Shown here in pieces: positions 4,790 through 62,308 of a stretch of DNA of 64,000 nt. The translations under genes and the position numbers were made by a program. The DNA lies in assembly GCA_963847095.1 (NCBI GenBank), contig CAWJYS010000021.1, positions 123,590-187,589 of the forward strand, given 5' to 3'. How positions within the stretch are numbered: position 1 is the first letter of the stretch; each line of letters begins with the position of its first letter. This DNA comes from Methanotrichaceae archaeon (GTDB lineage Archaea > Halobacteriota > Methanosarcinia > Methanotrichales > Methanotrichaceae). The notes beneath the pieces are model-generated. The model was not told the origin of the DNA. It did not search any database and worked only from the letters and a program-made list of their open reading frames with translations.

Positions 4790-4832
4790 TTTTGTAGTTT
4801 TTCTCTGTGTCTCTGTGCCTCTGTGGTGAGTT
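4790..4832. repeat. Copy of the dispersed CTCTGTGCCTCTGTGGTG repeat element
   Basis: ctctgtgtctctgtgcctctgtggtgag is identical to 36131-36155. Confidence 0.6.
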
Positions 4833-11686: not shown

Positions 11687-11740
11687 ATGGGGCCACTGCG
11701 ATTTGAACGCAGGTCACAAGACCCCCAGTCTTGTAGGATA
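11687..11740 (-). repeat. 54-nt perfect duplicate of the 3' part of tRNA-Pro(GGG), from the anticodon stem to the discriminator: att-site-like island boundary
   Basis: Identical to 21295-21348. Identity ends exactly at the tRNA discriminator on one side and inside the D-arm region on the other. Confidence 0.8.
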
Positions 11741-12220
11741 TCATTGAGCTTACGATTTCAATCCAAGGCTTTGTCCATAGAGCGCTTTATTCATATAGAG
11801 AAGATGAAGGCTTCTTAGGCCGCTTTAAAAGGTATGTGAAAGGAGTAGAGCCTTCGAATCTGATGGAGTTGATTTCATCTCGGAGGCTCTTTATTAGCAA
11901 AGAAATGGCACTGGATGATTTGATTCTCCCGAACGAAGCGTGATATGAATTTATCCAGTGCAACAACGGCATTGAGGAGGCTTATGGCTTGCGACCTTCT
12001 GCCTGGGTGAGCTGCCATGGGCAGGAGCTTTGAGAGCGTGAGGATAGGCGCGAAGTATGTCTCGGTCAAATGGCCGAAGGATGGATGATTAGGGGAATAA
12101 TCGGATTCGTAGGCATGGCCCGTGGATCTCATAATACTGTGATTCCTTCCTTCAACGATTACTCCATTATCTTGAGCAGCAAGAAAGGTATTCCAGCTAT
12201 CCGGGAGGTTTGTTATGCAG

Positions 12221-16730: not shown

Positions 16731-16989
16731 CAATAAGATCTCTATTGCTCTTTAAAGATAACTTTATCGATCTTTTCACTGAAAGCCTACAAAACGCCTA
16801 TCTATATGGCGATAAGCCTTATTTATTAGAATCGGGCAAAAACCAGATATAAGCTATTAGTCTTAAAATCCTCTACTTTATAAATATCGATCCATTACAT
16901 TCTCTAATAAATCCCCCTGATCAGTTCGAAATGGAGGCGGACTTAAATACTGTTGCTTAACTACCTATCTACTAACAGGGGTGCAGTCC

Positions 16990-17040
16990 AATAATTAGGC
17001 TTTTTCTGCCCGGAGAACAACATAAACTATATCTAAGTTA
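16990..17040 (+). promoter_or_regulatory. Conserved upstream module A (TTTTCTGCCCGG.GAACAACATAAACTATATCT.AGTTATCGCC)
   Basis: Four near-identical roughly 45-nt modules lie 40-60 nt upstream of four consecutive genes. The core is TATA-like. Confidence 0.55.
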
Positions 17041-17081
17041 TCGCCAATATCATCACCACAAAAAATAAAGGGAACGGGTAA

Positions 17082-17636
17082 TTGGTGAAAGATGAGCTAG
17101 AAATTTTATACAAAAATTTAGATCACATATCTAAAGCATATTTATCAACACAATCAGAAATAATTGCATGGGAAGCTATTTTTGCACTGGTGGTGGGCCA
17201 AATTTTTCTGGCTTTCATACAGCTAAATGATGATCAAAGAACAGGAATGATTGGCTCAGTTGTTATTATATTAGGATCTATTTTTTCACTGATTTGGTTT
17301 GCAGTATTTCCTAAAACTCAGCATTATCAAAGAGATAGGGTTAGAAAACTGAAAAAGTTAGAAGAACGCATTAGACGTATAGATCCAGAATTTTTAGGTT
17401 ATTCACATCCCGACAAAGACGTCGGAAAAATTAAAGCATGGCATATACTTAAAATAATTCCAGTTATATTTTCTATAATTTGGATATTTCTGTCCATAAT
17501 GTACCCTAATAAACAGCATACTACATATATCATAACGCTTGGAATCACAGTTATATGCTTTATAGCGATTTGGATTTTTATTTTGTGTTTATATGAAGAT
17601 TGGATCAAGAAATGGTGGTTACCTTCTCAGGGATAG
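17082..17636 (+). CDS. Polytopic membrane protein
   Basis: 184 aa with four hydrophobic segments. Preceded by module A. Confidence 0.5.
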   Translation: MVKDELEILYKNLDHISKAYLSTQSEIIAWEAIFALVVGQIFLAFIQLNDDQRTGMIGSVVIILGSIFSLIWFAVFPKTQHYQRDRVRKLKKLEERIRRIDPEFLGYSHPDKDVGKIKAWHILKIIPVIFSIIWIFLSIMYPNKQHTTYIITLGITVICFIAIWIFILCLYEDWIKKWWLPSQG

Positions 17637-18027
17637 ATGCAATACATTCAAACGCCGGTCTTAGTAAAGTGTGCATGAAGTTGGATAATAACCAAGATAG
17701 ATCCTAATATCCCTGCAAAGACTGTGATTAAACTTGGAGCATCAAGATTTGCAGGAAATAACTTGAAACTCACCCATGTAAGGAAACATGAACCTAGGAG
17801 CAAACCGCTTATTTTTGCCCATGATCCTTGGTGAATCTGCATTCATCATAAAGGTATTAACCTTAAAGATAAATAGTTTTTGTGAACCTAAAATCCATAT
17901 TTTGACTACATATTGTGATTAAGTATTCTCATTGCACATAGCATTTGTCTTTTTCTGTTGCTTTTGGTAAATGTCCGGAAGAAGAGATAAAAGAAAAGGG
18001 CAATTGGTGGCGGTTCTGGAAATAAGA

Positions 18028-18312
18028 TTAAGGAATAGGGTATTTAAGTCCACCACTCACCACAAAATCAAAGATCATTGCCGGAAGTTTGACATGGGTA
18101 ATTACAATTTTACCGCTGTACACTTTATTACCTGATTTAAAAACACCTTCAGCATCACCGGCATTAATTCCAAATTCGTTTGATTCCGCTCTTCCTCTCC
18201 AGCTATTCATACCAACTTGACTAACACTGTGATATATTTGCCAATCACCAATGGAAATGGATTTTCCATCCATTGTTATATTCCCACCATATCCGGCTAA
18301 GCGTTCGGACAT
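18028..18312 (-). CDS. Hypothetical small protein (94 aa)
   Basis: ORF only. Confidence 0.25.
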   Translation of the reverse strand: MSERLAGYGGNITMDGKSISIGDWQIYHSVSQVGMNSWRGRAESNEFGINAGDAEGVFKSGNKVYSGKIVITHVKLPAMIFDFVVSGGLKYPIP

Positions 18313-18370
18313 ATAATGATAGATTCATGGGTAAATATATAAGGGTTAGGCTCAGGGTGAAACTATTAAC

Positions 18371-18420
18371 GTTTTCTACCGGGTGAACGACGTAAACTAT
18401 ATCTCAGCTACCGCCATCCC
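18371..18420 (+). promoter_or_regulatory. Conserved upstream module B
   Basis: See module A. Followed by GGAGGGAGAAGAGC-TTG-AAA-CTC. Confidence 0.55.
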
Positions 18421-18444
18421 CATCAATAACGGAGGGAGAAGAGC

Positions 18445-18981
18445 TTGAAACTCAAAGAATTTGTAATTTTGATAGCCATGGTTCTAGCGGTGCTATTGAT
18501 AGCTGGATGCGCTTCAAGCGGAAAAAATATAGGACCATATACAGTAACTTTTGATGGTATTGATGAAGAATACAAATACGGCGGTGAAAGTTCTAAGGCA
18601 AAGGAGTTTAAAACAGATTCAGGGGTTTCATATACAGAATATAGTAGGATGTTTTGGAAAGAGAATATGGAAGGAGATATAACAATTGGAGTCAATACTT
18701 ACGCTATCCCGATGTATAATGATAACCAAAATCCAAGAGAAGTTTTAAAAAGTCTTATAGAACCAAATGATAATATAACGATAGAAAATATAGAGATGGA
18801 TGGCAAACCCGGCATTTTGGCAAAAGAAAAGTTTATTTGGGCGGGCGGTGAACCCGGTGCTACATATATGCTATTTTATTGGCTTGATCCAAAAACTAGA
18901 GTTGGAGCTTATTTTATGGAAAGCCCAAAGAATAAATGGGATGATGCAAGCAAAGCAATGATGTCCATCAAGGTATCCTGA
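18445..18981 (+). CDS. Secreted lipoprotein-like protein (TTG start)
   Basis: MKLKEFVILIAMVLAVLLIAGCASS signal peptide with a lipobox Cys. The RBS GGAGG lies 9 nt upstream of TTG. Confidence 0.6.
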   Translation: MKLKEFVILIAMVLAVLLIAGCASSGKNIGPYTVTFDGIDEEYKYGGESSKAKEFKTDSGVSYTEYSRMFWKENMEGDITIGVNTYAIPMYNDNQNPREVLKSLIEPNDNITIENIEMDGKPGILAKEKFIWAGGEPGATYMLFYWLDPKTRVGAYFMESPKNKWDDASKAMMSIKVS

Positions 18982-19035
18982 ATACCCATCCCTTTTTTAG
19001 CCACTTACCTTATTGAAATGCTCATGAAGCTAAGG

Positions 19036-19085
19036 CTTTTCCTACCCGGTGAACAACATAAACTATATCTGAGTTATCGCCATCA
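19036..19085 (+). promoter_or_regulatory. Conserved upstream module C
   Basis: Carries the identical leader GGAGGGAGAAGAGC-TTG-AAA-CTC seen in module B. Confidence 0.55.
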
Positions 19086-19110
19086 CCTTCATCAAAGGAG
19101 GGAGAAGAGC

Positions 19111-19737
19111 TTGAAACTCGTTGAAGCTGGAATAATCGCTATAACACTATTTTGTTTAGCAGGGAATGCATATGGAGTTATGCAAGTCTATGATAGTGAT
19201 TTTGGCAAAATTAAAGTTGATTTGCCCATGGTGCTAATCCCAAAAGATGGGAATACAGGTACTTGGATAGACTTAGTTAAGGAAGGATCAGAAAAGCCTG
19301 TCATCTCTATACGCATGCAAACAACTTATGGGGAAGATTTTAAAAAATACGCAACTTCATCAGGCTTTAAGAGTATACCGATTGAAACAACAACCAATGA
19401 CGGATATAAAATAATTTATTACTCTGACCACAGTGGCACTAATAGTCAATATCAACCTGTATATCATTATACTGCGTTTATTGATTACTTGAAAGATAAG
19501 GGTAAGATAGTGCAAATGTGGACTTATTCAGAAGTAAATGGGAAAGAAGGAGCAGTAGCTAGATTTGATAAAGATCAATTCCTTGAAATATCCAAATCCT
19601 TTGCTGTTATAAGTGAATCAGAAGCGCAAGCTATAGTGGCGGAAACTGCAAAAACAAACCAATCGCCGGGATTTGGATCATTCTTCGCTATTCTGAGCCT
19701 TCTCGGAGCTATTTTTATCATGCAAAAGATAAAGTAG
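19111..19737 (+). CDS. Secreted protein with a PGF-CTERM archaeal sorting signal (TTG start at 19111; the tracked ORF from 19018 is over-extended)
   Basis: N-terminus (M)KLVEAGIIAITLFCLAGNAYG. C-terminus SPGFGSFFAILSLLGAIFIMQKIK, i.e. a PGF motif, TM helix and basic tail. Confidence 0.6.
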   Translation: MKLVEAGIIAITLFCLAGNAYGVMQVYDSDFGKIKVDLPMVLIPKDGNTGTWIDLVKEGSEKPVISIRMQTTYGEDFKKYATSSGFKSIPIETTTNDGYKIIYYSDHSGTNSQYQPVYHYTAFIDYLKDKGKIVQMWTYSEVNGKEGAVARFDKDQFLEISKSFAVISESEAQAIVAETAKTNQSPGFGSFFAILSLLGAIFIMQKIK

Positions 19738-19996
19738 ATATAGATATTTTATTTTTTCCTACTTCTTTATTTTCCCGGTTCCTTAGAGATCATCCATAAT
19801 ACCCCAAATAGAGCTACAAAGACAGCTACCACATTAGGAGCATCAGGAAATAGCCGAAATACCGCCCATGTAAAGAAGATAGATGCTAGAACTAACCCGC
19901 CAATTCTAGCCCATGATTCTTGATGAATGAAGGACATCCATCATTGAAATATTAGTTTCGTAGGTATAAGGGTTTGGCTCAGGGCGTAACTTTTAG

Positions 19997-20045
19997 CCTT
20001 TTCTGCCCGGTGAGCAACGTAAACTATATCTAAGTTACCGCTGTC
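19997..20045 (+). promoter_or_regulatory. Conserved upstream module D
   Basis: See module A. Modules B and D share an additional roughly 30 nt upstream (ggctcagggyg.aac). Confidence 0.55.
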
Positions 20046-20104
20046 ACTACCATCAAAAAAAAGTCAAACCCGGAGGGTAAAATATTTTCTCAAATTTTGG
20101 GGTA

Positions 20105-20773: not shown

Positions 20774-21295
20774 AAAAGTAAACCAACTAACAGTAGAAAA
20801 CGTATGTCAACAGCTAAAGGATTTACTTAATTATCTTCAAGCAGAAATACATACTTCGGAAGAGGATTCTATACTGATCATTAATTTTTTTCAAAGGTTA
20901 CTCTAAATTTAGGATTTAGGGTTTCCCATCTCCTCTTTTATATAGCCGTGTTTTAAGCATTCTGTTTTGCTTTATTGAAATGCTCATGGGAAGCTGGATA
21001 ATTACCGCGATTGATGCTAATATCCTGGCAAAGACAGTAGCCAATAATAGTATACCTCTATAAGCCCCTTACAAGCCCATAGCGAAGCTTTGCAGATAGC
21101 TTGAAGGGTAAACCTTATTATGTAGATCCATGTGCAATTTTGGGCCTACCATTGCTTCGCGGCATATTTTCAAGCCCTTAGAGTAACAAGACTGGCGACT
21201 GGTATCCAAAAAAGCTTATATCTTAGAAGCCCTATCTCACATTAAAACATGGAGAAAGTGATACAATCAAAATCACTACCAGCAAAATGTTTCCA

Positions 21296-21368
21296 TGGGG
21301 CCACTGCGATTTGAACGCAGGTCACAAGACCCCCAGTCTTGTAGGATACCAGGCTACCCTATGGCCCC
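21296..21368 (-). tRNA. tRNA-Pro (anticodon GGG), no encoded CCA
   Basis: The reverse complement GGGGCCATAGGGTAGCCTGGTATCCTACAAGACTGGGGGTCTTGTGACCTGCGTTCAAATCGCAGTGGCCCCA folds as a cloverleaf: acceptor stem 7 bp, anticodon stem CAAGA/TCTTG with loop CTGGGGG, and T arm CTGCG-TTCAAAT-CGCAG. Confidence 0.85.
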
Positions 21369-23482: not shown

Positions 23483-23689
23483 CCATTTATGAATAGCAGC
23501 ACATGAAGGATATGATGGGGTAACAATGCAGTTGAATTGAGTTCATTGCGGAAACTGCAACATTTAGGGCGTTAATATTAAGCTCTTTGTGCATTTATCT
23601 TGTGATGAACTAATGTTTCTGACAAAGCGTAAGGTACAAAGAGATATCTAATGCGGTTTCCAGCAAAGTTGACCGTAAAATCCTTTGGG

Positions 23690-23846
23690 CGTCCTTTGTG
23701 GGCTTTGTGAGCTTTGTGGTGGTATTTCGTAAGCTTTTGTAGTTAATTACGGACTTAAATCAAACCCCAAAGCTCACAAAGAACTTTTAAGCTTAAGATC
23801 TCTTGACGACCCAAAATGAGGACTACTTAGTTTGGAGGGGCACTAG
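23690..23846. repeat. Dispersed inverted-repeat element of the CACCACAAAGCTCACAAAG family
   Basis: cctttgtgggctttgtgagctttgtggtgg...ccaaagctcacaaag. Homologous to 37538-37688 and 56512-56618. Confidence 0.65.
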
Positions 23847-32935: not shown

Positions 32936-33076
32936 TTATGCCTTTTCTATCATCTTTATTGCGATAGAGATAAGCGAAACGGCGAGTTTCGCGAAAATTT
33001 TAACCAACATGTATATTAACTAGAGTATGCCTTTATAGAAGGCTGCATTGCGTCGATTCAAAGGTACGTGAATTAA

Positions 33077-33280
33077 ATGTTCGAGAGAAAGTACGAAAGC
33101 AGCAGCGGTAGCGATAGTAGAAGCAGCTTTAACCGCGCCCCAAGAGAGACGACAGACGTAACTTGTTCTGAGTGCGGAAAGCAGACTCAAGTCCCATTCA
33201 AGCCGGACGGATCCAGGCCGGTTTACTGCAGCGAGTGCTACCAGAAGCACAGGCCTGCAAGGTCACCCAGAAGATATTAA
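33077..33280 (+). CDS. Small zinc-ribbon protein (CxxC...CxxC), paralogue of 52503-52718
   Basis: TCSECGKQTQVPFKPDGSRPVYCSECYQKHRP. Confidence 0.5.
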   Translation: MFERKYESSSGSDSRSSFNRAPRETTDVTCSECGKQTQVPFKPDGSRPVYCSECYQKHRPARSPRRY

Positions 33281-33579
33281 ACCGATTTGATTATTCACTT
33301 TTTTAACTCCTAGAGACCCAATCGATGAGGAAAAGGAATAGTAGAATTGAACACCTCTGAACCGTGTGGAATTGGACTATCAGTATCAATTCGCTTTCCT
33401 ATCGAAGATTACGAAAAACTACTTGATCTAGTAGGCAGATAGCGGTGACATATTCTACCACGATTGCATGAGAAATATGAAAATATCTGACGAGCGGAGG
33501 GATCTAAATTAAACAATCTATAATTCCAGAGATAAAGAAATTTGACGACATAATCTCGGAGCTGGGGCGCAGAGGGATT

Positions 33580-33837
33580 GTGGTGCTGATGAACCGCCCT
33601 ACACGCTGGGGCTATGTCGTGGACGCTGTCATCCCCTCGGCAAAGGTAGTCATTCTGAAAATACCGGATTTAACCAGGCAAACCAAAGTGGCAATGGTCA
33701 CTTTCCGGGATATGAAAAATAGACTTGAAGGCGATGGATATCAAGTCCTCATAGTGCCTAATAGAAGCATGAACGAGGCGCAAATCAACGCCTTCTGTGA
33801 TCGGGTCTCAATCAAACCTGCCCTTGCTGCTGCCTGA
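33580..33837 (+). CDS. Conserved hypothetical 85-aa protein, paralogue of 53675-53932
   Basis: About 85% identical at the protein level to the second copy. Confidence 0.5.
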   Translation: MVLMNRPTRWGYVVDAVIPSAKVVILKIPDLTRQTKVAMVTFRDMKNRLEGDGYQVLIVPNRSMNEAQINAFCDRVSIKPALAAA

Positions 33838-35938: not shown

Positions 35939-36039
35939 GGCTTCTGAAGGCTGCTGAGGCAGTTCTTCAAGCCTTTGATTAATTTTTACTATTGAGGCTA
36001 TCCCAAAAGGCATGCCGCTTACGAGTTTCTTTGCGCCTT

Positions 36040-36155
36040 TGTATCTTCGTGGTGGACACTTACGACTTCACCACAGAGGCACAGAGGGATTTTAATATTA
36101 CTATCCAACGGCTCTCAACTTTTCGTTCTCTGTGTCTCTGTGCCTCTGTGGTGAG
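36040..36155. repeat. Inverted-repeat element of the CACCACAGAGGCACAGAG family
   Basis: 18-bp arms at 36069-36086 and 36137-36153 are perfectly complementary. One arm recurs at 4803-4830. Confidence 0.7.
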
Positions 36156-36377
36156 CGTCATCTAAGCTAACCACTAATTCAAAAAACACAAAGAATTTAT
36201 CGCCAATTACTCCGATTGCAGTTTCGGAGTGAGCTCATCGCCTAAAAGCCTCCCGCTTTAGTGCCCCTGGGCTAATTTTCTCGATCTGCAGGCATGCCAT
36301 TGCATGGGATGTGCATTCATTGGTCCCTTTTGGTTCACTGATAGCATTATATATCGAGGTGATCAATTAGATTCCGG

Positions 36378-37388: not shown

Positions 37389-37537
37389 TGAGGAGGCCTT
37401 CCCTGCAGGTCGGAGGAGTCCGGCATCCTGTGCGAGCGTTGTGTCAGAGCCATCAGGAACTGCATGCGGTTTGGCTAACATGGCCTGCCGCTCAAGGGCT
37501 CTGGCAACTGGAACGACGGCATGAAGGAAGTCGTTTA

Positions 37538-37688
37538 ATTAAGTCCGTAGTTGACTATAAAAGCTTACGAAATACCACCACAAAGCTCACAAAGAGCACA
37601 AAGGACTCATGAAGAATGTTTGAAGCTTAAGATCTAAGATCTCCTGACGGCTAAAAAATGAGAATATCTTAGTTTGAAGGGTACTAGC
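37538..37688. repeat. Dispersed element of the CACCACAAAGCTCACAAAG family
   Basis: Its first half is the reverse complement of 23690-23760. The second half is colinear with 23790-23846. Confidence 0.65.
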
Positions 37689-37756
37689 AATACCACTACC
37701 GAGAGACATCCTGTTACATCACGGTTATGCAGGCGGGGCGGCACATCAGATTCAGA

Positions 37757-52234: not shown

Positions 52235-52502
52235 TATTTGCTAATTCAACATTGGAGATAAACCAGGTCGCCAGTGAGGCCCAGGTGCAAAGTGAGCCAG
52301 AGGTCTTCTTTCAGTTATTCGCATGATTTCTGATAGTCCCAATGACTCGCACCCGGAGAGTCCCGTGACATTTTGATCAACAGGTATTTAAGGTAAGGAG
52401 GCCATTATAAGGAGGCTGCATTGCGTCGATTCAAAGAGATTTGTTTAGATGTTTTTTGTAGCAGGTTCGATTCTTTGAATCGATTCAAAGGTAGTGAATT
52501 AA

Positions 52503-52718
52503 ATGTTTGAGAGAAAATATGACAATAGCGGTAGCAGCAGCAGCAGAGGCGGCTACAGCAGCGGTCCGAGAGAGATGACAGACGTAACTTGTTCTGAGTG
52601 CGGAAAGCAGACTCAGGTCCCATTCAAGCCGGACGGATCCAGGCCGGTTTACTGCAGCGAGTGCTATCAGAAGCACAGGCCTGCACAAGGTCACCCAGAA
52701 GATATTAAACTGATTTGA
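52503..52718 (+). CDS. Small zinc-ribbon protein, paralogue of 33077-33280
   Basis: TCSECGKQTQVPFKPDGSRPVYCSECYQKHRP is identical in both copies. Confidence 0.5.
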   Translation: MFERKYDNSGSSSSRGGYSSGPREMTDVTCSECGKQTQVPFKPDGSRPVYCSECYQKHRPAQGHPEDIKLI

Positions 52719-53046
52719 TTATTCTTTAATCGATCTGTTTTAACCTGACCGCATCTGAAACTGCGGAACAGACAAATGCTGGGCAATTTCATGCCCTGCA
52801 AATTTTTACTCCTCGCCGTTTTGTGCGGCACTTCGAAAAGCTGTTCTGATATGTGGCCGGCAGACTGGGCCAAGGTGGGGAGATAATGGATAGAATAAAT
52901 GAATAGAGTATCTTAATAATAGTAGGAGATGACGACTTCATGGGTCCCGTATCTGATAGAGGTGGCTTAGGTAGAGGAGTTATGCGCATGATACGGATGC
53001 CCGTCTCCGAAAGATACAATAAAGAGCTGAGGCTTTCAGGGCCTGG

Positions 53047-53508
53047 GTGGAGCAGAGGAAGATGACTGAGCACAAGCAGACCGCAATTCTCGATCCAACA
53101 TCAAACCAAATGATTGAGGTTGACGTTGGAATAGCTCCATTACTTAAAGCCATCTGGGGTTTTGGAATTACGACATGCAATTCCTGCCAGGAAAATAAAC
53201 CTGGCATTACATGGATAGAGTTCCTCCGGGCTGAAGATGCAGAATCATTCTTGACCCGCGTAATATCAGGTCTTGATCCCTTTAATAGTCCTGAAGCAGA
53301 CAACTGGCTATACTCCAGAATAATAGGTCTTAATGGAGGCTGGCAATATAACGCACATCCTCATGATTTTAGAGAATGCATCGATGAGGAAAAAGGAATA
53401 ATAGAATTGAACGCCTCCGAACCATGTGGAATTGCACTATCGATATCGATTCGCTTTCCCATCAGAGATTACGAAAGGCTTCTCGATCTGGTAGGCAGAA
53501 AGCAGTGA
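53047..53508 (+). CDS. Hypothetical 153-aa protein. Only its 3' end survives at the paralogous locus (33310-33440).
   Basis: ORF. The 3' 130 nt are homologous to a non-coding stretch at 33310-33440. Confidence 0.45.
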   Translation: MEQRKMTEHKQTAILDPTSNQMIEVDVGIAPLLKAIWGFGITTCNSCQENKPGITWIEFLRAEDAESFLTRVISGLDPFNSPEADNWLYSRIIGLNGGWQYNAHPHDFRECIDEEKGIIELNASEPCGIALSISIRFPIRDYERLLDLVGRKQ

Positions 53509-53674
53509 AGCGAAGTCGGCATCACGGCTTTATTAAGAATCGGCAAAAATTAATTATGATTTGCATATATTAAATTTGAATTCGATAAATGGAGGAATCT
53601 AAATTAAAAAATCTATAATTCCAGAGATAAAGAAATTTGATGACATAATTTCGGAACTGGGGCGCAGAGAGATT

Positions 53675-53932
53675 GTGGTGCTGATGAATCGCTCTACAAG
53701 GTGGGGCTATGTCGTGGACGCCGTAATCCCTTCGGCAAAGGTAGTCATTCTGAAAATGCCAGACCTGAGCAGGCAGGTTAAGGTGGCAATGAGCATGTTC
53801 CGGGATATGACAGTTAGACTCGAAGGCGACGGATACCGAGTCCTCGTTGTGCCTAATAGAAGCATGAACGAGGAGCAAATAAAAGCCTTCTGTGATCGGG
53901 TCTCAATTGAACCAGCTCTTGCTGCTGCATAA
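53675..53932 (+). CDS. Conserved hypothetical 85-aa protein, paralogue of 33580-33837
   Basis: See paralogue. Confidence 0.5.
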   Translation: MVLMNRSTRWGYVVDAVIPSAKVVILKMPDLSRQVKVAMSMFRDMTVRLEGDGYRVLVVPNRSMNEEQIKAFCDRVSIEPALAAA

Positions 53933-56212: not shown

Positions 56213-56368
56213 ATGCCCAAAACTACATTGACCTTATCCGAACCTATAGCCAAAACTCTAAAGGTTTATACTGCAAAAACAAAGAGCAGCCTGCGTGCCC
56301 AAAGTGAAGTTGTAGAGGAAGCGTTAAGAGAGTTCTTTGAGAGGCGCAACGTGAAGATCGAAGTCTAA
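56213..56368 (+). CDS. Small ribbon-helix-helix (CopG-like) protein, 51 aa
   Basis: MPKTTLTLSEPIAKTLKVYTAKTKSSLRAQSEVVEEALREFFERR is a beta-alpha-alpha pattern. Below the ORF-track size cut-off. Confidence 0.4.
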   Translation: MPKTTLTLSEPIAKTLKVYTAKTKSSLRAQSEVVEEALREFFERRNVKIEV

Positions 56369-56511
56369 TTCAAGACAAGCAGTATCCGATCAGGTAAACC
56401 AGAGGTTGATATATCTTTTCGTCAAGTTGAGGCCTTCCTTCGCCAGATTCCCCAGAGAGCTGCTGTGTTGCATAAATCAGGTTCATTTTAAGACTGCAAC
56501 CAGGCATTAAA

Positions 56512-56618
56512 TCCTTTGTGCGTTCTTTGTGAGCTTTGTGATCTTTGTGGTGGATCTCGTTCGTTTGGCTGCTACGAGACAAAACGGAATCCACCACAAA
56601 GGCACAAAGAAACGCACA
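56512..56618. repeat. Dispersed inverted-repeat element of the CACCACAAAG family
   Basis: ctttgtgagctttgtgatctttgtggtggat...atccaccacaaaggcacaaag. Confidence 0.65.
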
Positions 56619-56931
56619 TGACCTGAATGTCACCCATGAGGATGAAAATGGACCTCATCTTTTTGGACGATTTCACAGGCACCGGCGAGATGAAGGAGCA
56701 TTGACACCAGCTCCACACTTGTTCTTTCTCGACCGCATCGTTCTTTCTACCAGAACGTCCTCTCGATTTCTATGCCTCTGAGATGACCATAGAATTGGAA
56801 TAGGGCATCTTTCCCGTCACGGTATTTATTGAAGATCCGGTAAATTTACCATATGTAGATCAATGCGGAATGTCCTGATAATCGACCAAAACTCATTAAA
56901 CAAGTTGGATCATAATAGATAATAGACGAAT

Positions 56932-58374
56932 ATGGCCCACGAGAACACCTCCCCTTGGTTAAGACAGGTGAGAAGAACCCGCCCGGTTATCGCCCTTTCG
57001 GAAGATGCCAATGCAGACGTAGCCATCGTGGGAGGAGGAATCTCCGGAGTGGCGACCTCCTACTTCATTCTCCAAGATACGAACAGAAGTGTAATCCTGA
57101 TGGAAAAATGCAGGGTGGCTCACGGGGCCACGGGCTATAACGGCGGCCAGGCGGTAGCCGCCTTCGAGCGGACCATGCTGGAGCTCTGCAAAAAATTTGG
57201 GGAGGATCTGGTCTCTGAAGGACAGAAGGCAATCAATAGCGCCTGGGGACTACTTTACTCGATAATCGAGGAGACAGGAATCGATGTCGGCCTCCAGGAA
57301 GTCACTGCTTACCTCGCACTCTCTTCCATTGATGATGTCCTGTTCATGCTCAGGGAGAGGCAGCTCTCAGATCGGTTAGGTTTGCCTAAGAGAGACATGC
57401 TGCTGGCAGAAGACGTTGCCGGAGAGGTTCCCGAAGAATACCACTCCCTGTTTAAGATGGTGCACAGGAAGGAACTGGACGAGATGCTCCTGACGCGAGA
57501 TGGCGATTATATCTGCGCTCTTGGGGCGAGAGTGGGGTTGATCAACAGCGCCCTCTTTTGCGAAGAGCTGGTCTCATGGTTGCTGGACCGGTACTCCGGC
57601 AGGTTCAGAGTTTATGAGGATACCTCAGTCCAGAGGATCACGGTAGACAATGGCGTAGGCATTGGCGTACGCAACGACATAGGAAACGACATAGGAAACG
57701 GCGCAGTTCTCATGACGGGCAAAAACGTGGTTAAGGCGAAGCACGCTGTCCTTTGCACCAATGGCTATGACGATCTGGAGATCGAGGGCGTGGACGCCTC
57801 GATAAAGGGGGCCATACACGGCGTTTTAGGGTTCCTGGTCGGGTACATGGATGAAAAGGAGAGGGACCCTGCTGCCGCGGTCTACTTCAGCTCAAGAAAG
57901 TCAGGCCAGGCCGAGGGATACTTCTACCTGGCCAGGCGGAGATATATTGAGGGCCCTAAAAGAGAGCTTACAAGTGTGGGCGGGCCCGACCGTCCCCTCA
58001 GGGAGACAGAAAGGTACAGCTCGGAGGATATCTCGGAGGAAATCCCAGAGGTGGAAGAATATTATTCCAGGATCGAGGAATTCTACAGGATGACTGCCAT
58101 CGATGCGTCCGCAGATACGCAGCGGGACTTCTCCTGGAACGGCCTCATGGGCTATACTTCTAGCGGAGTCAGGGTGATCGGACCGGACCCCACGAACCCT
58201 TCCTTGATCTACAACATGGGCTGCAACGGCATAGGCATACTGCCGTCGATCTACGGTGGCAAGAAGGTAACGCAGGTTATCATGGGAGAGACGTTGGCCC
58301 CATCCATATTCGATCCTGTATCCGCTTCGCTTATGGCAGCTTCGAAACCAATTGTCTCTAAAAAAGGAAAGTGA
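56932..58374 (+). CDS. FAD-dependent oxidoreductase (DAO-like)
   Basis: VAIVGGGISGVATSY dinucleotide-binding motif. Contains an in-frame 12-bp tandem duplication at 57676-57699 (DIGNDIGN). Confidence 0.65.
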   Translation: MAHENTSPWLRQVRRTRPVIALSEDANADVAIVGGGISGVATSYFILQDTNRSVILMEKCRVAHGATGYNGGQAVAAFERTMLELCKKFGEDLVSEGQKAINSAWGLLYSIIEETGIDVGLQEVTAYLALSSIDDVLFMLRERQLSDRLGLPKRDMLLAEDVAGEVPEEYHSLFKMVHRKELDEMLLTRDGDYICALGARVGLINSALFCEELVSWLLDRYSGRFRVYEDTSVQRITVDNGVGIGVRNDIGNDIGNGAVLMTGKNVVKAKHAVLCTNGYDDLEIEGVDASIKGAIHGVLGFLVGYMDEKERDPAAAVYFSSRKSGQAEGYFYLARRRYIEGPKRELTSVGGPDRPLRETERYSSEDISEEIPEVEEYYSRIEEFYRMTAIDASADTQRDFSWNGLMGYTSSGVRVIGPDPTNPSLIYNMGCNGIGILPSIYGGKKVTQVIMGETLAPSIFDPVSASLMAASKPIVSKKGK

Positions 58375-58405: not shown

Positions 58406-60052
58406 TTACTCGAAGTCCTCTCCGCCCATGCCGCCGGGCATTCCGCCTGGCATGCCGCCTGCACCGCCCGGTCCACCGGACTGGGAGGCAATGACGTCAT
58501 CGATCCTGAGGATCATGACAGCGGCCTCGGCTGCAGACTGGATGGCCTGGGTCTTGACCCTGAGCGGCTCCACAACACCTAAGGACAGCATGTCAACGGG
58601 CTTGCCGGTGTCCATGTCCAGGCCTGCGCTCTTCATGCCCTGCTCGTGCTTGCTTCTTAGCGCCACCAGAGAATCGATCTGGTCAAGGCCCGCATTCTCT
58701 GCCAGGGTCTTGGGTATGATCTCCATGGCATCGGCAAAGGATTCGATAGCCAGCTGCTCACGGCCTCCTACTGTCGAAGCGTACGCCCTGAGCCGGAGAG
58801 CAAGCTCCACCTCGGGAGCGCCGCCTCCGGGAACCAGCATCTGGTCTTCCACAGCGACGCCAACGACCCTCAGTGCGTCCTCCATTGCCCGCTCAAGCTC
58901 ATCGACCACGTGCTCCGTTCCGCCGCGAAGAATGATGGATACGGACTTGGGGTTCTCGCACCCTTCGACGAAGGTCATCTTCTCGTCGCTGACCTTCTTC
59001 TCTTCGACTACGCAGGACTTGCCAAGGTCGTCCTTGGTCAGCTCGTGAATGCTGGTAACGATCCTGCCGCCCGTCGCCCTCGCGAGCTTCTCCATGTCGC
59101 TCTTCTTGACGCGCCTGATGGTGTAGATTCCGGCCTTTGCGAGGAAGTGCTGGGCCAGGTCATCTATGCCCTTCTGGCAGAAGACCACGTTAGCTCCGGT
59201 GGCTACGATGCTGTCGACCATGTCCCTGAGCATGGTCTCCTCCTGGTCCAGGAAAGCCTGGAGCTGGTCTGGGGAGGTGATCTGAATCTTGGCATCGACC
59301 TCTGTCTTCTCGATCTCAATCGCAGCGTTTAAGAGAGCGATCCTGGCATCTGTGACCTTCCTTGGCATGTTGGGGTGCAGCCTGTCCTTATCGATAACCA
59401 CTCCGCTCACAAGCATGGAGTCGCTGATCCCGCCGCCGACCTTCTTCTCCACAGTAATGTTATCGGTATCCACAGTCCCGTCTTCGTCTACCACGGACTT
59501 GATTGCCTCAACCGTCATCACTGCCAGCTCATCCCGGGCGACCTGAGAGCCCTTGCCGGTCATGGCTGTGGTGGCGATCTTACGGAGAAGCTCTTCGTCC
59601 TCCGTGGTGACCTTTGTCGCTATGGACTTCAGGATCTCCATGGACTTGTCAGCCGCTGCCCTGTAGCCTGCAGCTATGACTGTAGGATGGATCTCCTGGT
59701 CCAGCAGCTCCTCGGCCTGCTTGAGAAGCTCTCCCGCGAGCACGACAGCGGTGGTCGTCCCGTCTCCGACCTCCTGGTCCTGGGTCTTGGCAATCTCCAC
59801 CATCATCTTGGCCGCAGGATGCTCGATGTCCATCTCTTTGAGTATGGTTACGCCGTCGTTGGTAATCACAACGTCGCCCATGGTGTCGACAAGCATCTTG
59901 TCCATGCCCTTGGGCCCTAGAGTAGTCCTGACGGCTCCAGCCACTGCCTTGGCCGCCATGATGTTCGATCTCTGCGCATCTCGTCCGGCAGTCCTCTGGC
60001 TGCCTTCCCTGAGAATGAATATGGGTGTTCCACTGAATTGTCCAGCCATCAA
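58406..60052 (-). CDS. ths: Thermosome subunit (group II chaperonin)
   Basis: Conserved along its length ([21 protein letters not shown]) with a C-terminal [13 protein letters not shown] tail. Confidence 0.95.
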
Positions 60053-60796
60053 TACCTCAAATTAACTCAATAATAATGCCATTTAAGCATCTATTCGTTG
60101 TTTGAGCTTCTATATAAAATGTATGCTTGCTCGAGCATAGTTAGTACTATGGTATTATAATCAATCGCCAAAGATTAATTATCAACTCCCGTATATTCCT
60201 GATTTGGAAATTATGATACTCCTCTAGTTCGCGAGTGAGCGATTGGCTAGCCTAAGAAATCGGACATGTTGTTAATGCAATCGATGTATCAATTGCATGG
60301 GTAAAGAAATATCTGAGAACATCCTAGGCTTTTATTCACTTTGTGTCTTAGTTGTTTGTGTCTTCGTGATTTAGCGCGCATTAGTTCACCACTTTTCGTA
60401 CCGGCTTATCGCTAAGCTAAACAGAATTGCAGTTTGGGAATCAGCACAAACCGATTGCCTTTTGTTCGCCGAAGCTTTGGGTATATAGAGACAATAGGGA
60501 AAATACAGATATATACTTTAATAAGACAAGAGATATATTGACCTAATCCCTACACTAGAATGTGAGCGTTGTTTTCTCCTTTGAGGATTGCAGGTCTGAG
60601 GCAGAGCCCAACGCTTATCTAAGGCCTCGCTTCGAAGAGGACGCCCCGAAGAGGATTGATTTTTCAAACCAAATTTCCAAGCACTGCCTTTGTCGGGCTT
60701 TTTTGATGAGTTCTTCAGGAAGATGTTGCACGGAATTTGCCGCCTGCCATCTGGCAGAGTTTTTCAACATGAGGCGAAAATTGGGAGATATAAAAG

Positions 60797-61504: not shown

Positions 61505-62308
61505 ATGGCAACGGTAAAGGGCAGAGTAAAGGCCAGGCTGGAAGCTGGCAGCTATCAACGCAAAATCCTGGAGAACCCTGTCCAAAGAGCTAAGATCGTC
61601 CTCAAAGGGGGCACTCCTTATGTTCATATCTATGTAACCTGCAAAGTGCCTGAGAAAGAGGCGGATGATCCCGTGGGAGTAGATCTGGGCGTCAGGAAGC
61701 TTCTGGTGGCATCTAACGGCTTTAAAATAAATGGGGGACTGGTAAAGGCCAGGCAAAGGCATTTTAGGGCTCTCAGGGAATCTCTCAAATCAAAAGGCAC
61801 CTCCTCTGCACGGAGGAGGCTCAAACGGCTACAAAAGAGAGAGAACCGATGGATGAAGAACGTTCTTCATCAGTCCAGCAGGGGCCTGATCGTATCTCTT
61901 GAAGAGGGCAGCTACATTTCCCTGGAGAGGCTCTACGGCACGAAGATCAGGAGTAAGGTGAATAGGAATCGAAAATGTACAAGGAGAGCATACAAGTCCT
62001 CGGCCATGTGCAGGCTCCAGCACATGATAACTTACAAGTGTGAGGAGAGCGGCATTCCTGTGGTGCTGGTCAAACCGGACTTCACATCACAGCGCTGCCC
62101 CAGATGCGGCACCATAGATAGATATAATCGCAGGACGCAGGCGCTCTTTAGATGCGTGAACTGCGGGTATCAGCACAATGCAGACTTCGTGGCATCCATT
62201 AACCTCCGGGAGCTGGCTCGCGGAGGTTGGGCTGCTGTCAGCCAGCCTTATGCGATCCCAACTGTATATGGGGACTGCGAGCCCGTTTTGCAGCATTTTT
62301 TGCACTGA
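61505..62308 (+). mobile_element. tnpB: N-terminally truncated TnpB-like (IS200/IS605 OrfB-family) gene
   Basis: RuvC-I VGVDLGVRKLLVAS, zinc finger CPRCG...CVNCG, RuvC-III NADFVASINL. About 150-200 N-terminal residues are missing. No tnpA nearby. Confidence 0.65.

Follow-up and report, generated by a model that had tools for sequence, protein, structure and literature searches.

Two families of short intergenic repeats in a 64,000-nucleotide (64-kb) stretch of DNA from a Methanotrichaceae archaeon, here called the window, probably belong, as miniature members without a gene, to a widespread class of small cassettes which carry the gene for a GxxExxY nuclease. The repeated heptad arrays form the two ends of a family of gene cassettes, gene-less members of which are present in the window. 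As we picture the cassettes, their ends would be inverted arrays of three to four tandem C-(A/G)-C-N-N-A-G heptads, 1–3 nt apart, with (T)CAC or CCAC caps, and a full-length cassette would hold a single nuclease gene (~130 aa; PF13366, TIGR04256) between the arrays.

Capped heptad arrays in the window

The initial annotation described a dispersed, intergenic, hairpin-forming repeat, family 2, and this was borne out: five matches of CACCACAAAGCTCACAAAG (≤3 mismatches) are present in the window against 0.01 expected, and the sequence CACAAAG-NN-CACAAAG occurs seven times, again against 0.01 expected. Of the three copies of a 150-bp unit which it proposed, the copies stand but the unit does not, for copy 3 has the array alone; the basic unit is a capped array of heptads of ~30 nt. 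Membership was assessed with a sequence-only profile, R1, constructed from 62 arrays flanking GxxExxY genes in metagenome contigs, with window sequence excluded, and run on the window with filters off. The three family 2 copies are made up, in order, of the following features.

23691–23722, minus strand: copy 1 left arm, a CCAC-capped CACAAAG array, inverted (CCAC-CACAAAG-CT-CACAAAG-CC-CACAAAG-G on the minus strand); R1 match 23692–23721(−), E 6.7e-5
23723–23762, plus strand: copy 1 spacer S, 40 nt, a hairpin loop with an inner CGTAA...TTACG stem; reverse-complemented in copy 2
23763–23781, plus strand: copy 1 short right arm, ACCCCAAAG-CT-CACAAAG, which pairs with the left arm; weak R1 match, E 0.66
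23782–23846, plus strand: copy 1 tail T, colinear with copy 2, at the position of the cargo start in full cassettes
37533–37574, plus strand: copy 2 spacer S, reversed, in the orientation opposite to copy 1
37575–37606, plus strand: copy 2 array, CCAC-capped (CCAC-CACAAAG-CT-CACAAAG-AG-CACAAAG-GA), solo, without a partner arm; R1 match 37576–37605(+), E 1.4e-6
37607–37688, plus strand: copy 2 tail T, ~75% identity to T of copy 1
56511–56555, minus strand: copy 3 left arm, an inverted CCAC-capped CACAAAG array of cap and four heptads; R1 match 56523–56555(−), E 8.6e-6
56556–56588, unstranded: copy 3 loop, 33 nt, with an inner CTCGT...ACGAG stem
56589–56615, plus strand: copy 3 right arm, CCAC-capped (CCAC-CACAAAG-G-CACAAAG-AAAC-GCACA); R1 E 6.7e-5

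The other arrays of the window, including those of family 1 (CACAGAG), are these.

4800–4830, minus strand: solo family 1 array, TCAC-CACAGAG-G-CACAGAG-A-CACAGAG; R1 E 1.4e-6
36026–36056, minus strand: degenerate family 2-like array; R1 E 5.8e-5
36066–36155, unstranded: canonical 90-nt gene-less family 1 element with caps outward, TCACCACAGAGGCACAGAG ... CTCTGTGTCTCTGTGCCTCTGTGGTGA; R1 matches 36066–36087(+), E 3.6e-4, and 36126–36154(−), E 1.3e-6
56758–56787, minus strand: decayed array, 70% identity to the family 1 array (repeat search); possibly the right end of an element starting at 56589
60339–60393, minus strand: decayed array, CTTTGTG-T-CTTAGTT-G-TTTGTG-T-CTTCGTG and then a TTCACCAC cap; R1 E 0.09 and 0.56

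Arrays with at least three heptads, sought by regular expression, number five in the window and none in shuffled sequence, and the density of arrays in the window is ~1 per 8 kb. The family 1 hairpin at 36066–36155 adjoins the degenerate family 2 array at 36026–36056.

The reported relationship between copies 1 and 2, with an inverted 5' half and a colinear 3' half, is exact by pairwise alignment. The inverted module is 75 nt long (23691–23765 is the reverse complement of 37533–37606), and the colinear module measures ~80 nt (23768–23846 against 37599–37687). Spacer S and tail T are found in copies 1 and 2 only; copy 3 has in common with copy 1 merely the array of ~45–50 nt (23678–23722 against 56509–56553, 91%). 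Since the spacer sequence GTGGTGGTATTTCGTAAGCT had zero matches in the metagenome scan, S appears to be private to this lineage.

A hairpin had been claimed for each copy. This is true of copy 1, whose arms form an inverted repeat of 25 nt (84%) and which folds into a long hairpin (−32.6 kcal/mol, z −3.1), and of copy 3 (−48.6 kcal/mol, z −7.4), but not of copy 2, a single arm with no long hairpin (z +0.86). The canonical family 1 element at 36066–36155 folds at −51.4 kcal/mol (z −5.3). In copies 1 and 3 the caps point inward (…GTGG-loop-CCAC…), while in the canonical cassette they point outward; these two copies may be junctions of two elements. With respect to the window ORFs every copy is intergenic, as described, but the placement next to convergent or divergent gene ends does not hold for copy 3, the neighbours of which (genes 56213–56368+ and 56932–58374+) are co-oriented. 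A thermosome gene (PF00118) lies at 58406–60052 on the minus strand.

R1 gave eight matches in the window (E 1.3e-6 to 3.6e-4), which coincide exactly with the arrays of families 1 and 2; the next-best match (E 0.09) is the decayed array at 60339–60393. Because one profile matches both, families 1 and 2 are one family and the same thing as the cassette ends. The single superfamily proposed in the initial annotation is therefore upheld, but CACAGAG against CACAAAG is not the sole difference, as family 1 has a period of 8 nt and a TCAC cap and family 2 a period of 9 nt and a CCAC cap. The CCAC cap and 9-nt period of family 2 are less common among gene-flanking arrays.

We defined a cassette end as a (T)CAC or CCAC cap followed by at least three tandem C-R-C-N-N-A-G heptads with 1–3 nt spacers, and the window arrays have this structure. 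Inverted pairs are present at 36066–36155, with outward caps, and in copies 1 and 3, with inward caps; copy 2 and 4800–4830 are solo. Searches by tblastn and six-frame profile found neither a PF13366/TIGR04256 gene nor a remnant of one in the 64 kb of the window, nor in a further ~60 kb from other Methanotrichaceae. As there is no nuclease gene between the window arrays, we class the copies as gene-less derivatives and not as full cassettes.

Nuclease cassettes bounded by arrays

The arrays were first linked to a gene in two bacterial contigs. One acidobacterial contig possesses two array-bounded elements of ~280 nt with common internal sequence, and their ORFs (65 and 63 aa) correspond to the C-terminal half of a PF13366 (PDDEXK_3) protein. 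An FCPU426 contig has the full PF13366 gene (135 aa), whose start is immediately preceded by an array and whose stop is immediately followed by an array hairpin. The NCBIfam name for this cargo family is “GxxExxY protein” (TIGR04256). Full genes, C-terminal gene fragments and gene-less hairpins, all with arrays, constitute a deletion series.

The association was also approached from the gene. An alignment of 25 family members was used to collect 80 metagenomic loci encoding a GxxExxY relative, and these were examined for the generalised heptad C[AG]CNNAG, at least two in tandem. Arrays were found within ~200 nt of the GxxExxY gene in 73 of the 80 loci, where background predicts ~4; a plus-strand array lies upstream in 59, a minus-strand array downstream in 56, and both are present in 48. 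Elsewhere in the same 80 loci the array density is 0.12 per kb, and in shuffled sequence it is 0. In the opposite direction the link is sparse: the gene is present in just 2 of ~80 loci selected for their arrays, so most arrays are far from cargo. No other recurrent cargo gene was found between array pairs.

The two arms of a cassette are ~81% identical. The heptad variant tends to agree between the ends of one cassette and to differ among cassettes, and past the first heptad the ends continue for 5–8 nt with a palindrome (TT-N-AC type). Outside the ends of 27 cassettes we found no consistent target-site duplication; the flanks mostly prolong the palindrome. Among the mismatches between the arms of 48 cassettes, read on the sense strand, 63 are of the G.U type and 67 of the A.C type, and these equal counts give no sign of selection on RNA pairing. 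The cassette gene mostly points the same way as the genes beside it, namely in 50 of 61 cases for the upstream neighbour and in 46 of 59 for the downstream one, and median gaps of 95 nt upstream and 87 nt downstream separate it from them. One cassette of Sphingomonas parapaucimobilis lies between the genes fabD and fabG.

The GxxExxY protein comprises ~130 aa, and its AlphaFold2 model has a pLDDT of 91.9. Residues E38, D79, E89, K91, Q103 and Y107 are invariant in the alignment of 25 members, a set which we take to be the motif set of the RecB-family nucleases. It is plausible, from the model and these residues, that this protein is a RecB/Cas4-like PD-(D/E)XK nuclease, a predicted DNA enzyme. 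No solved structure matches it by sequence. Steczkiewicz et al. (PMC3424549) listed PF13366 as a family without a known function that has been transferred between Bacteria and Archaea more than once, and such transfers across domains fit the presence of the arrays in Methanotrichaceae. Of 8,000 candidates scored, more than 7,900 are homologs at E 1e-5, and few unexplained small proteins are as common in environmental bacteria as GxxExxY proteins. Relatives in viruses and plasmids were restricted to one viral contig and eight plasmid or chromid records; viruses and plasmids are not obvious carriers.

Distribution, turnover and alternative explanations

When one genome per species was scanned for exact matches to CCACCACAAAG-N1-2-CACAAAG, at least 110 stretches were returned, with 115 matches listed. 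A third CACNNAG heptad stands in register in 67 of the 115 matches listed (<1 expected). Among these same matches an inverted array follows 54–154 nt downstream in 28 and lies upstream in nine, and 39 lack both a third heptad and a partner array. The chance-like matches are located within ORFs in 22 of 32 cases, while family members occur between ORFs or at their edges (again among the matches listed). Gene-less hairpins of 55–150 nt account for 28 of the 115 pattern matches listed. The genuine matches listed come from Acidobacteriota, Planctomycetota (five of the loci being from one Gemmataceae genome), Chloroflexota, WOR-3, KSB1, FCPU426, Verrucomicrobiota, Bacteroidota, Pseudomonadota, Desulfobacterota and five Methanotrichaceae contigs. 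Five viral sequences matched the pattern, two of which look genuine.

Positions C1, C3, A6 and G7 of the heptad are invariant, and positions 4 and 5 vary (AA, GA, AG, CA, TA and others); a T precedes the cap in 55 of 83 cases among the matches listed. Different heptad variants can sit on the two arms of one hairpin, which argues that each arm is read individually rather than that the stem alone is selected. A resemblance of the motif to DnaA boxes, Chi-like and CRP-like sites was considered and dropped because the host is archaeal and the likeness partial. Apart from common housekeeping families, no protein family recurs among the at least 110 array-bearing loci. Against Rfam at the gathering threshold the window matched only tRNA-Pro, with the hairpins unmatched, and copy 2 was unmatched even at a relaxed threshold; 18 bacterial loci gave, at the gathering threshold, an unrelated cobalamin riboswitch and nothing at the hairpins.

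The arrays differ between strains and between relatives. In four assemblies of Fischerella thermalis, with the same gene at the same locus, the gene is followed by one, two, two or four tandem gene-less hairpin units of 75 nt, and the unit starts with the same sequence as the start of the gene itself. The 5' array in Fischerella is translated as MNHQDSKTPR. Related Methanothrix contigs, with 75–90% nucleotide identity in the RNB and M29 genes, have no arrays beside these two genes. Copy 2 lies entirely inside a gap (37403–37745) which is not homologous to these relatives. No clean empty site for copy 2 could be recognized in the Methanothrix relatives compared, as the genes around RNB and M29 are ordered differently in all of them. 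The RNase R-like protein of the window has a database entry of 100% identity on a 213-kb contig, and its relatives at ~80% identity bear the names Methanothrix or Methanotrichaceae; together with the thermosome gene this marks the window as archaeal and Methanothrix-like.

It is their distribution which suggests that the cassettes are mobile. The arrays are putative DNA-level recognition sites of the nuclease and as such might aid the spread of the cassette; four observations fit this proposal, namely the invariant C1, C3, A6 and G7, the variants that tend to match between ends, the ~81% identity of the arms and the equal mismatch counts. The archaeal hairpins would then be non-autonomous, MITE-like remnants or, alternatively, the empty form of the site. 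The direction can be read either way, that is, the hairpins may be leftovers of cassettes or sites invaded by the gene.

In the window the elements are non-coding, and their effects are likely to be the passive ones of palindromes, namely hairpins or cruciforms in DNA and structures at the 3' ends of transcripts, together with those of homologous sequence dispersed over the window. The arrays are also likely substrates for inversion and rearrangement, in view of the spacer that is flipped between copies 1 and 2 and of the break in synteny which coincides with copy 2. A flipped spacer is the expected product if the inverted arrays of an element like copy 1 recombine with each other. The claim of an invertible module agrees with copy 1, where the spacer lies between inverted arrays, and with its reversal in copy 2, but not with the missing second arm of copy 2. 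Neither a recombinase nor both spacer orientations at one locus were seen, and an invertible module is something which we only infer.

One might instead regard the hairpins as RNA or DNA structures that serve the host (REP-like stabilisers of 3' ends, terminators or protein-binding palindromes), which GxxExxY genes merely use or enter. The strictly intergenic position of the arrays, often just past stop codons, speaks for such structures, as do their scarcity between divergent genes (3 of 42, against ~20% expected, among the matches listed), the strength of the stems (z −3 to −7 in the window; −30 to −80 kcal/mol in bacteria) and the fact that the cargo gene is not adjacent to most arrays. We nevertheless consider this explanation unlikely. 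Copy 2 and 4800–4830 are solo arms without a hairpin, the mismatches are periodic, since the arms of a hairpin often differ in heptad variant, and their numbers (63 versus 67) carry no signal of selection for RNA pairing. Furthermore, the arrays are absent from orthologous intergenic regions of relatives, and the motif is common to Archaea and many bacterial phyla with unrelated machineries of termination and decay.

A quite improbable reading takes the hairpins for classical MITEs, which would have arisen by deletion from an insertion sequence that encodes a transposase (DDE or another type) and has the arrays as its terminal inverted repeats. The arrays do act as terminal inverted repeats of elements of 55–280 nt, and two copies of ~280 nt on one acidobacterial contig have their internal sequence in common. 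However, no transposase adjoins any window array, no non-housekeeping protein family recurs in the at least 110 array loci, no consistent target duplication was found at the ends of the 27 cassettes, and the nuclease gene is the only one consistently bracketed by arrays. According to the initial annotation, its reading would fail if the units proved to be fragments of the terminal repeat of a known IS or of rRNA or tRNA flanks. They are indeed terminal repeats of an element, but of no catalogued IS, and they are not rRNA or tRNA flanks.

That the copies are genes for small structured RNAs is very improbable. Two of the three copies do form stable hairpins, but there is no Rfam match at the gathering or the relaxed threshold, the loops are not conserved between copies, and the mismatches in the arms have no RNA-specific signal.

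We give still less credence to REP or REPIN elements mobilised by a RAYT (an IS200-like Y1 transposase), even though the short dispersed intergenic singlets, the inverted doublets and the cluster of alternating orientation at 36026–36155 are arranged as in REPINs and BIMEs. One array alone is not palindromic and lacks the GTAG/CGTC tag; a Y1 transposase is absent among the window ORFs (Pfam) and is not recurrent in the at least 110 loci. REP sequences are lineage-specific and the heptad motif crosses domains.

Operators of a ribbon-helix-helix (RHH) repressor which binds tandem heptads, as does the omega repressor, are the least credible: a 51-aa RHH gene (56213–56368) with weak omega-repressor/RHH matches (E 8.5e-4, under the Pfam cutoff) adjoins copy 3, and periods of 7–9 bp, direct and inverted, are typical of RHH operators, but copy 3 is downstream of that gene and not at its promoter, the other copies have no RHH neighbour, and across phyla the arrays go with the nuclease gene and not with RHH genes.

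If the copies are, as we think probable, gene-less members of the nuclease cassette class, an anonymous protein family and a set of anonymous intergenic hairpins become one testable system, and in the window both repeat families are explained together and marked as likely substrates for rearrangement. The heptad motif would offer a simple marker for the annotation of thousands of “orphan” hairpins. Such hairpins also lead to surplus ORF calls, since their arrays, when translated, give HKGTK-like tails.

Relationship to known systems

We found no published description of these arrays or of their link to GxxExxY proteins in a search outside which lay most subscription journals and database family notes. 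The CACAAAG motif is not mentioned in the paper on TAACTGA repeats (PMC4679880) or in the RepRanger paper.

Like integron attC cassettes, the GxxExxY cassettes are small, promoter-less-looking and co-oriented, with an imperfect boundary palindrome. Unlike attC, this palindrome is split over the two ends of the cassette, and the integrase, attI, cassette array and RYYYAAC/GTTRRRY core sites of integrons are missing from the window sequences and ORFs. The cyanobacterial STRR sequences and the TAACTGA repeats of Beggiatoaceae and cyanobacteria (PMC4679880) resemble the arrays in being intergenic tandem 7-nt units which are patchily distributed across phyla. They differ in being contiguous direct repeats of other sequences, mostly upstream of start codons; they are not capped inverted arrays and have no link to a cargo gene.

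REPs, REPINs and BIMEs, like the arrays, occur as singlets, hairpin-forming inverted doublets and clusters in intergenic regions, often 3' of genes. The REP unit, however, is an imperfect palindrome of 20–40 bp with a GTAG/CGTC tag, whereas the array is an untagged direct tandem repeat; REPs are lineage-specific and accompanied by a RAYT, and the arrays are conserved across phyla and domains, with no RAYT among the window ORFs. MITEs share more with the window elements, both being short, non-coding and multi-copy, with the terminal inverted repeats of a longer gene-bearing relative and a deletion series. The parent of a MITE encodes a transposase, but the relative of the heptad-array elements encodes a nuclease of 130 aa. 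The arrays are moreover internally periodic, unlike the ends of MITEs, and 27 cassettes show no consistent target-site duplication.

Of the elements described so far, the closest is the intervening sequence (IVS) of 23S rRNA, known for example from Coxiella burnetii and Leptospira; both it and the cassettes are small and selfish, with a single short ORF between terminal inverted repeats that make up a long stem. In Coxiella, GACAGAT heptamers are repeated three to four times in tandem at the 5' end of the IVS, and their number varies among strains (PMC4990558). The IVS and the cassette family have the same architecture, a small ORF enclosed by inverted repeats which contain tandem heptamers, although the window elements lack the ORF. 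The IVS lies in helices of rRNA (23S helix 9, 25 or 45) and is excised by RNase III; the cassettes lie between protein genes, their arms have no RNA-level mismatch signal, and the window contains no rRNA. The cargo also differs, being the S23p four-helix bundle in the IVS and a PD-(D/E)XK nuclease in the GxxExxY cassettes; no four-helix-bundle gene was found in the array and cassette loci examined. Three unrelated free-standing four-helix-bundle genes are flanked by inverted tandem arrays of GGGTTCN. The cassette heptad CRCNNAG is distinct from this sequence and from the GACAGAT of the Coxiella IVS, and the three loci suggest that the heptad-array architecture may be general and the heptads cargo-specific.

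We would suggest, tentatively and as somewhat less than an even prospect, that the arrays and the GxxExxY gene make up an unrecognised class of mobile elements of Bacteria and Archaea. In such a class the sole protein, a minimal Cas4/RecB-like nuclease, would recognise the tandem heptads of its own ends, the hairpins would be non-autonomous or empty-site forms, and the S23p/Avd-like four-helix-bundle genes and the IVSs would be sister cassettes, alike in architecture but with other heptads. This touches the old question of how rRNA intervening sequences spread and, if true, would provide a mechanism for elements the mobility of which has been unexplained since the 1990s.

Heptad arrays and what adjoins them

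Heptad arrays are tandem C-R-C-N-N-A-G motifs with a TCAC or CCAC cap. Beyond the cap, the Methanotrichaceae copies at the comparison loci L006, L019, L030, L038 and L055 share an extra motif of about 30 nt, AACGTC-N6-8-GCCACTGGTTAT. Neither the bacterial copies nor the window's copies of family 2 (CACAAAG arrays) have this motif, and a variant of it follows a family 1 (CACAGAG) array.

36156-36185, variant of the AACGTC-N6-8-GCCACTGGTTAT motif

Some bacteria carry long pure tandem expansions of these heptads, for example (CACAAAGG)8 and (CACAGAGA)10-15; slippage can therefore lengthen the arrays.

L093 1320-1382, 1784-1864 and 3238-3356, expanded pure heptad arrays
L021 7670-7729, expanded pure heptad array

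Copy 3, a family 2 hairpin, lies 140 nt downstream of a small ribbon-helix-helix ORF, the product of which is unlikely to bind the heptads.

56213-56368, + strand, ribbon-helix-helix ORF, 51 aa, weak omega-repressor and VapB-like matches

Other repeats and a TnpB-like gene in the window

A tRNA-Pro(GGG) gene and a partial copy of it lie 9.6 kb apart, separated by low-GC DNA (GC 0.38-0.41).

11687-11743, 3'-part copy of tRNA-Pro(GGG), 57 nt, 98% identity to the gene
21295-21368, intact tRNA-Pro(GGG) gene

This pair resembles the duplicated att sites that flank an integrated element; no integrase gene was found among the ORFs of at least 120 aa. Two further sets of repeats are present. The first consists of paralogous segments of non-coding appearance that include a zinc-ribbon ORF, and in a relative (L114, 3059-3386) the zinc-ribbon-segment module has the RNB gene on one side and a DEAD-box helicase gene on the other. 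The second comprises repeated segments of about 90-130 nt (16968-20052, 60-81% identity), which lie upstream of four small genes, one with an 8xMP match and one with a PGF-CTERM match.

32997-33795 and 52370-53890, paralogous segments, 85-87% identity
33077-33280, zinc-ribbon ORF (CxxC...CxxC), 67 aa, inside these segments
17082, 18445, 19018 and 20105, paralogous small surface-protein-like genes, each with a repeated upstream segment

The window also holds a TnpB/Cas12f-like ORF, probably a truncated IS200/IS605-type accessory gene, which no heptad array adjoins. The arrangement at locus L218 is the same.

61505-62308, + strand, TnpB/Cas12f-like ORF, 267 aa, PF07282 and PF01385

Cassettes of other genomes and the 23S rRNA IVS

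GxxExxY cassettes are PF13366/TIGR04256 nuclease genes flanked by heptad arrays. In Fischerella thermalis the coding start contains the gene's 5' array, and the gene adjoins a gene-less 75-nt hairpin unit whose tandem copy number at a single orthologous locus is 1, 2, 2 and 4 across four assemblies (L203-L206, ~1415-1720). The Sphingomonas parapaucimobilis cassette, with CGCGAAG arrays, lies between fabD and fabG (L220, 480-945), and its annotated ORF reads through the 3' array.

Inverted tandem arrays of another heptad, GGGTTCN/GAACCCN, which differs from that of the GxxExxY cassettes, flank four-helix-bundle genes (PF05635/bAvd-like, "S23p") at L207, L211 and L214, with the same positions relative to the gene at all three.

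L207 660-700 and 1058-1095, GGGTTCN/GAACCCN arrays around the four-helix-bundle gene

The occurrence of four-helix-bundle genes inside inverted heptad arrays suggests a general "heptad-array cassette" architecture common to these cassettes and the 23S rRNA IVS elements.
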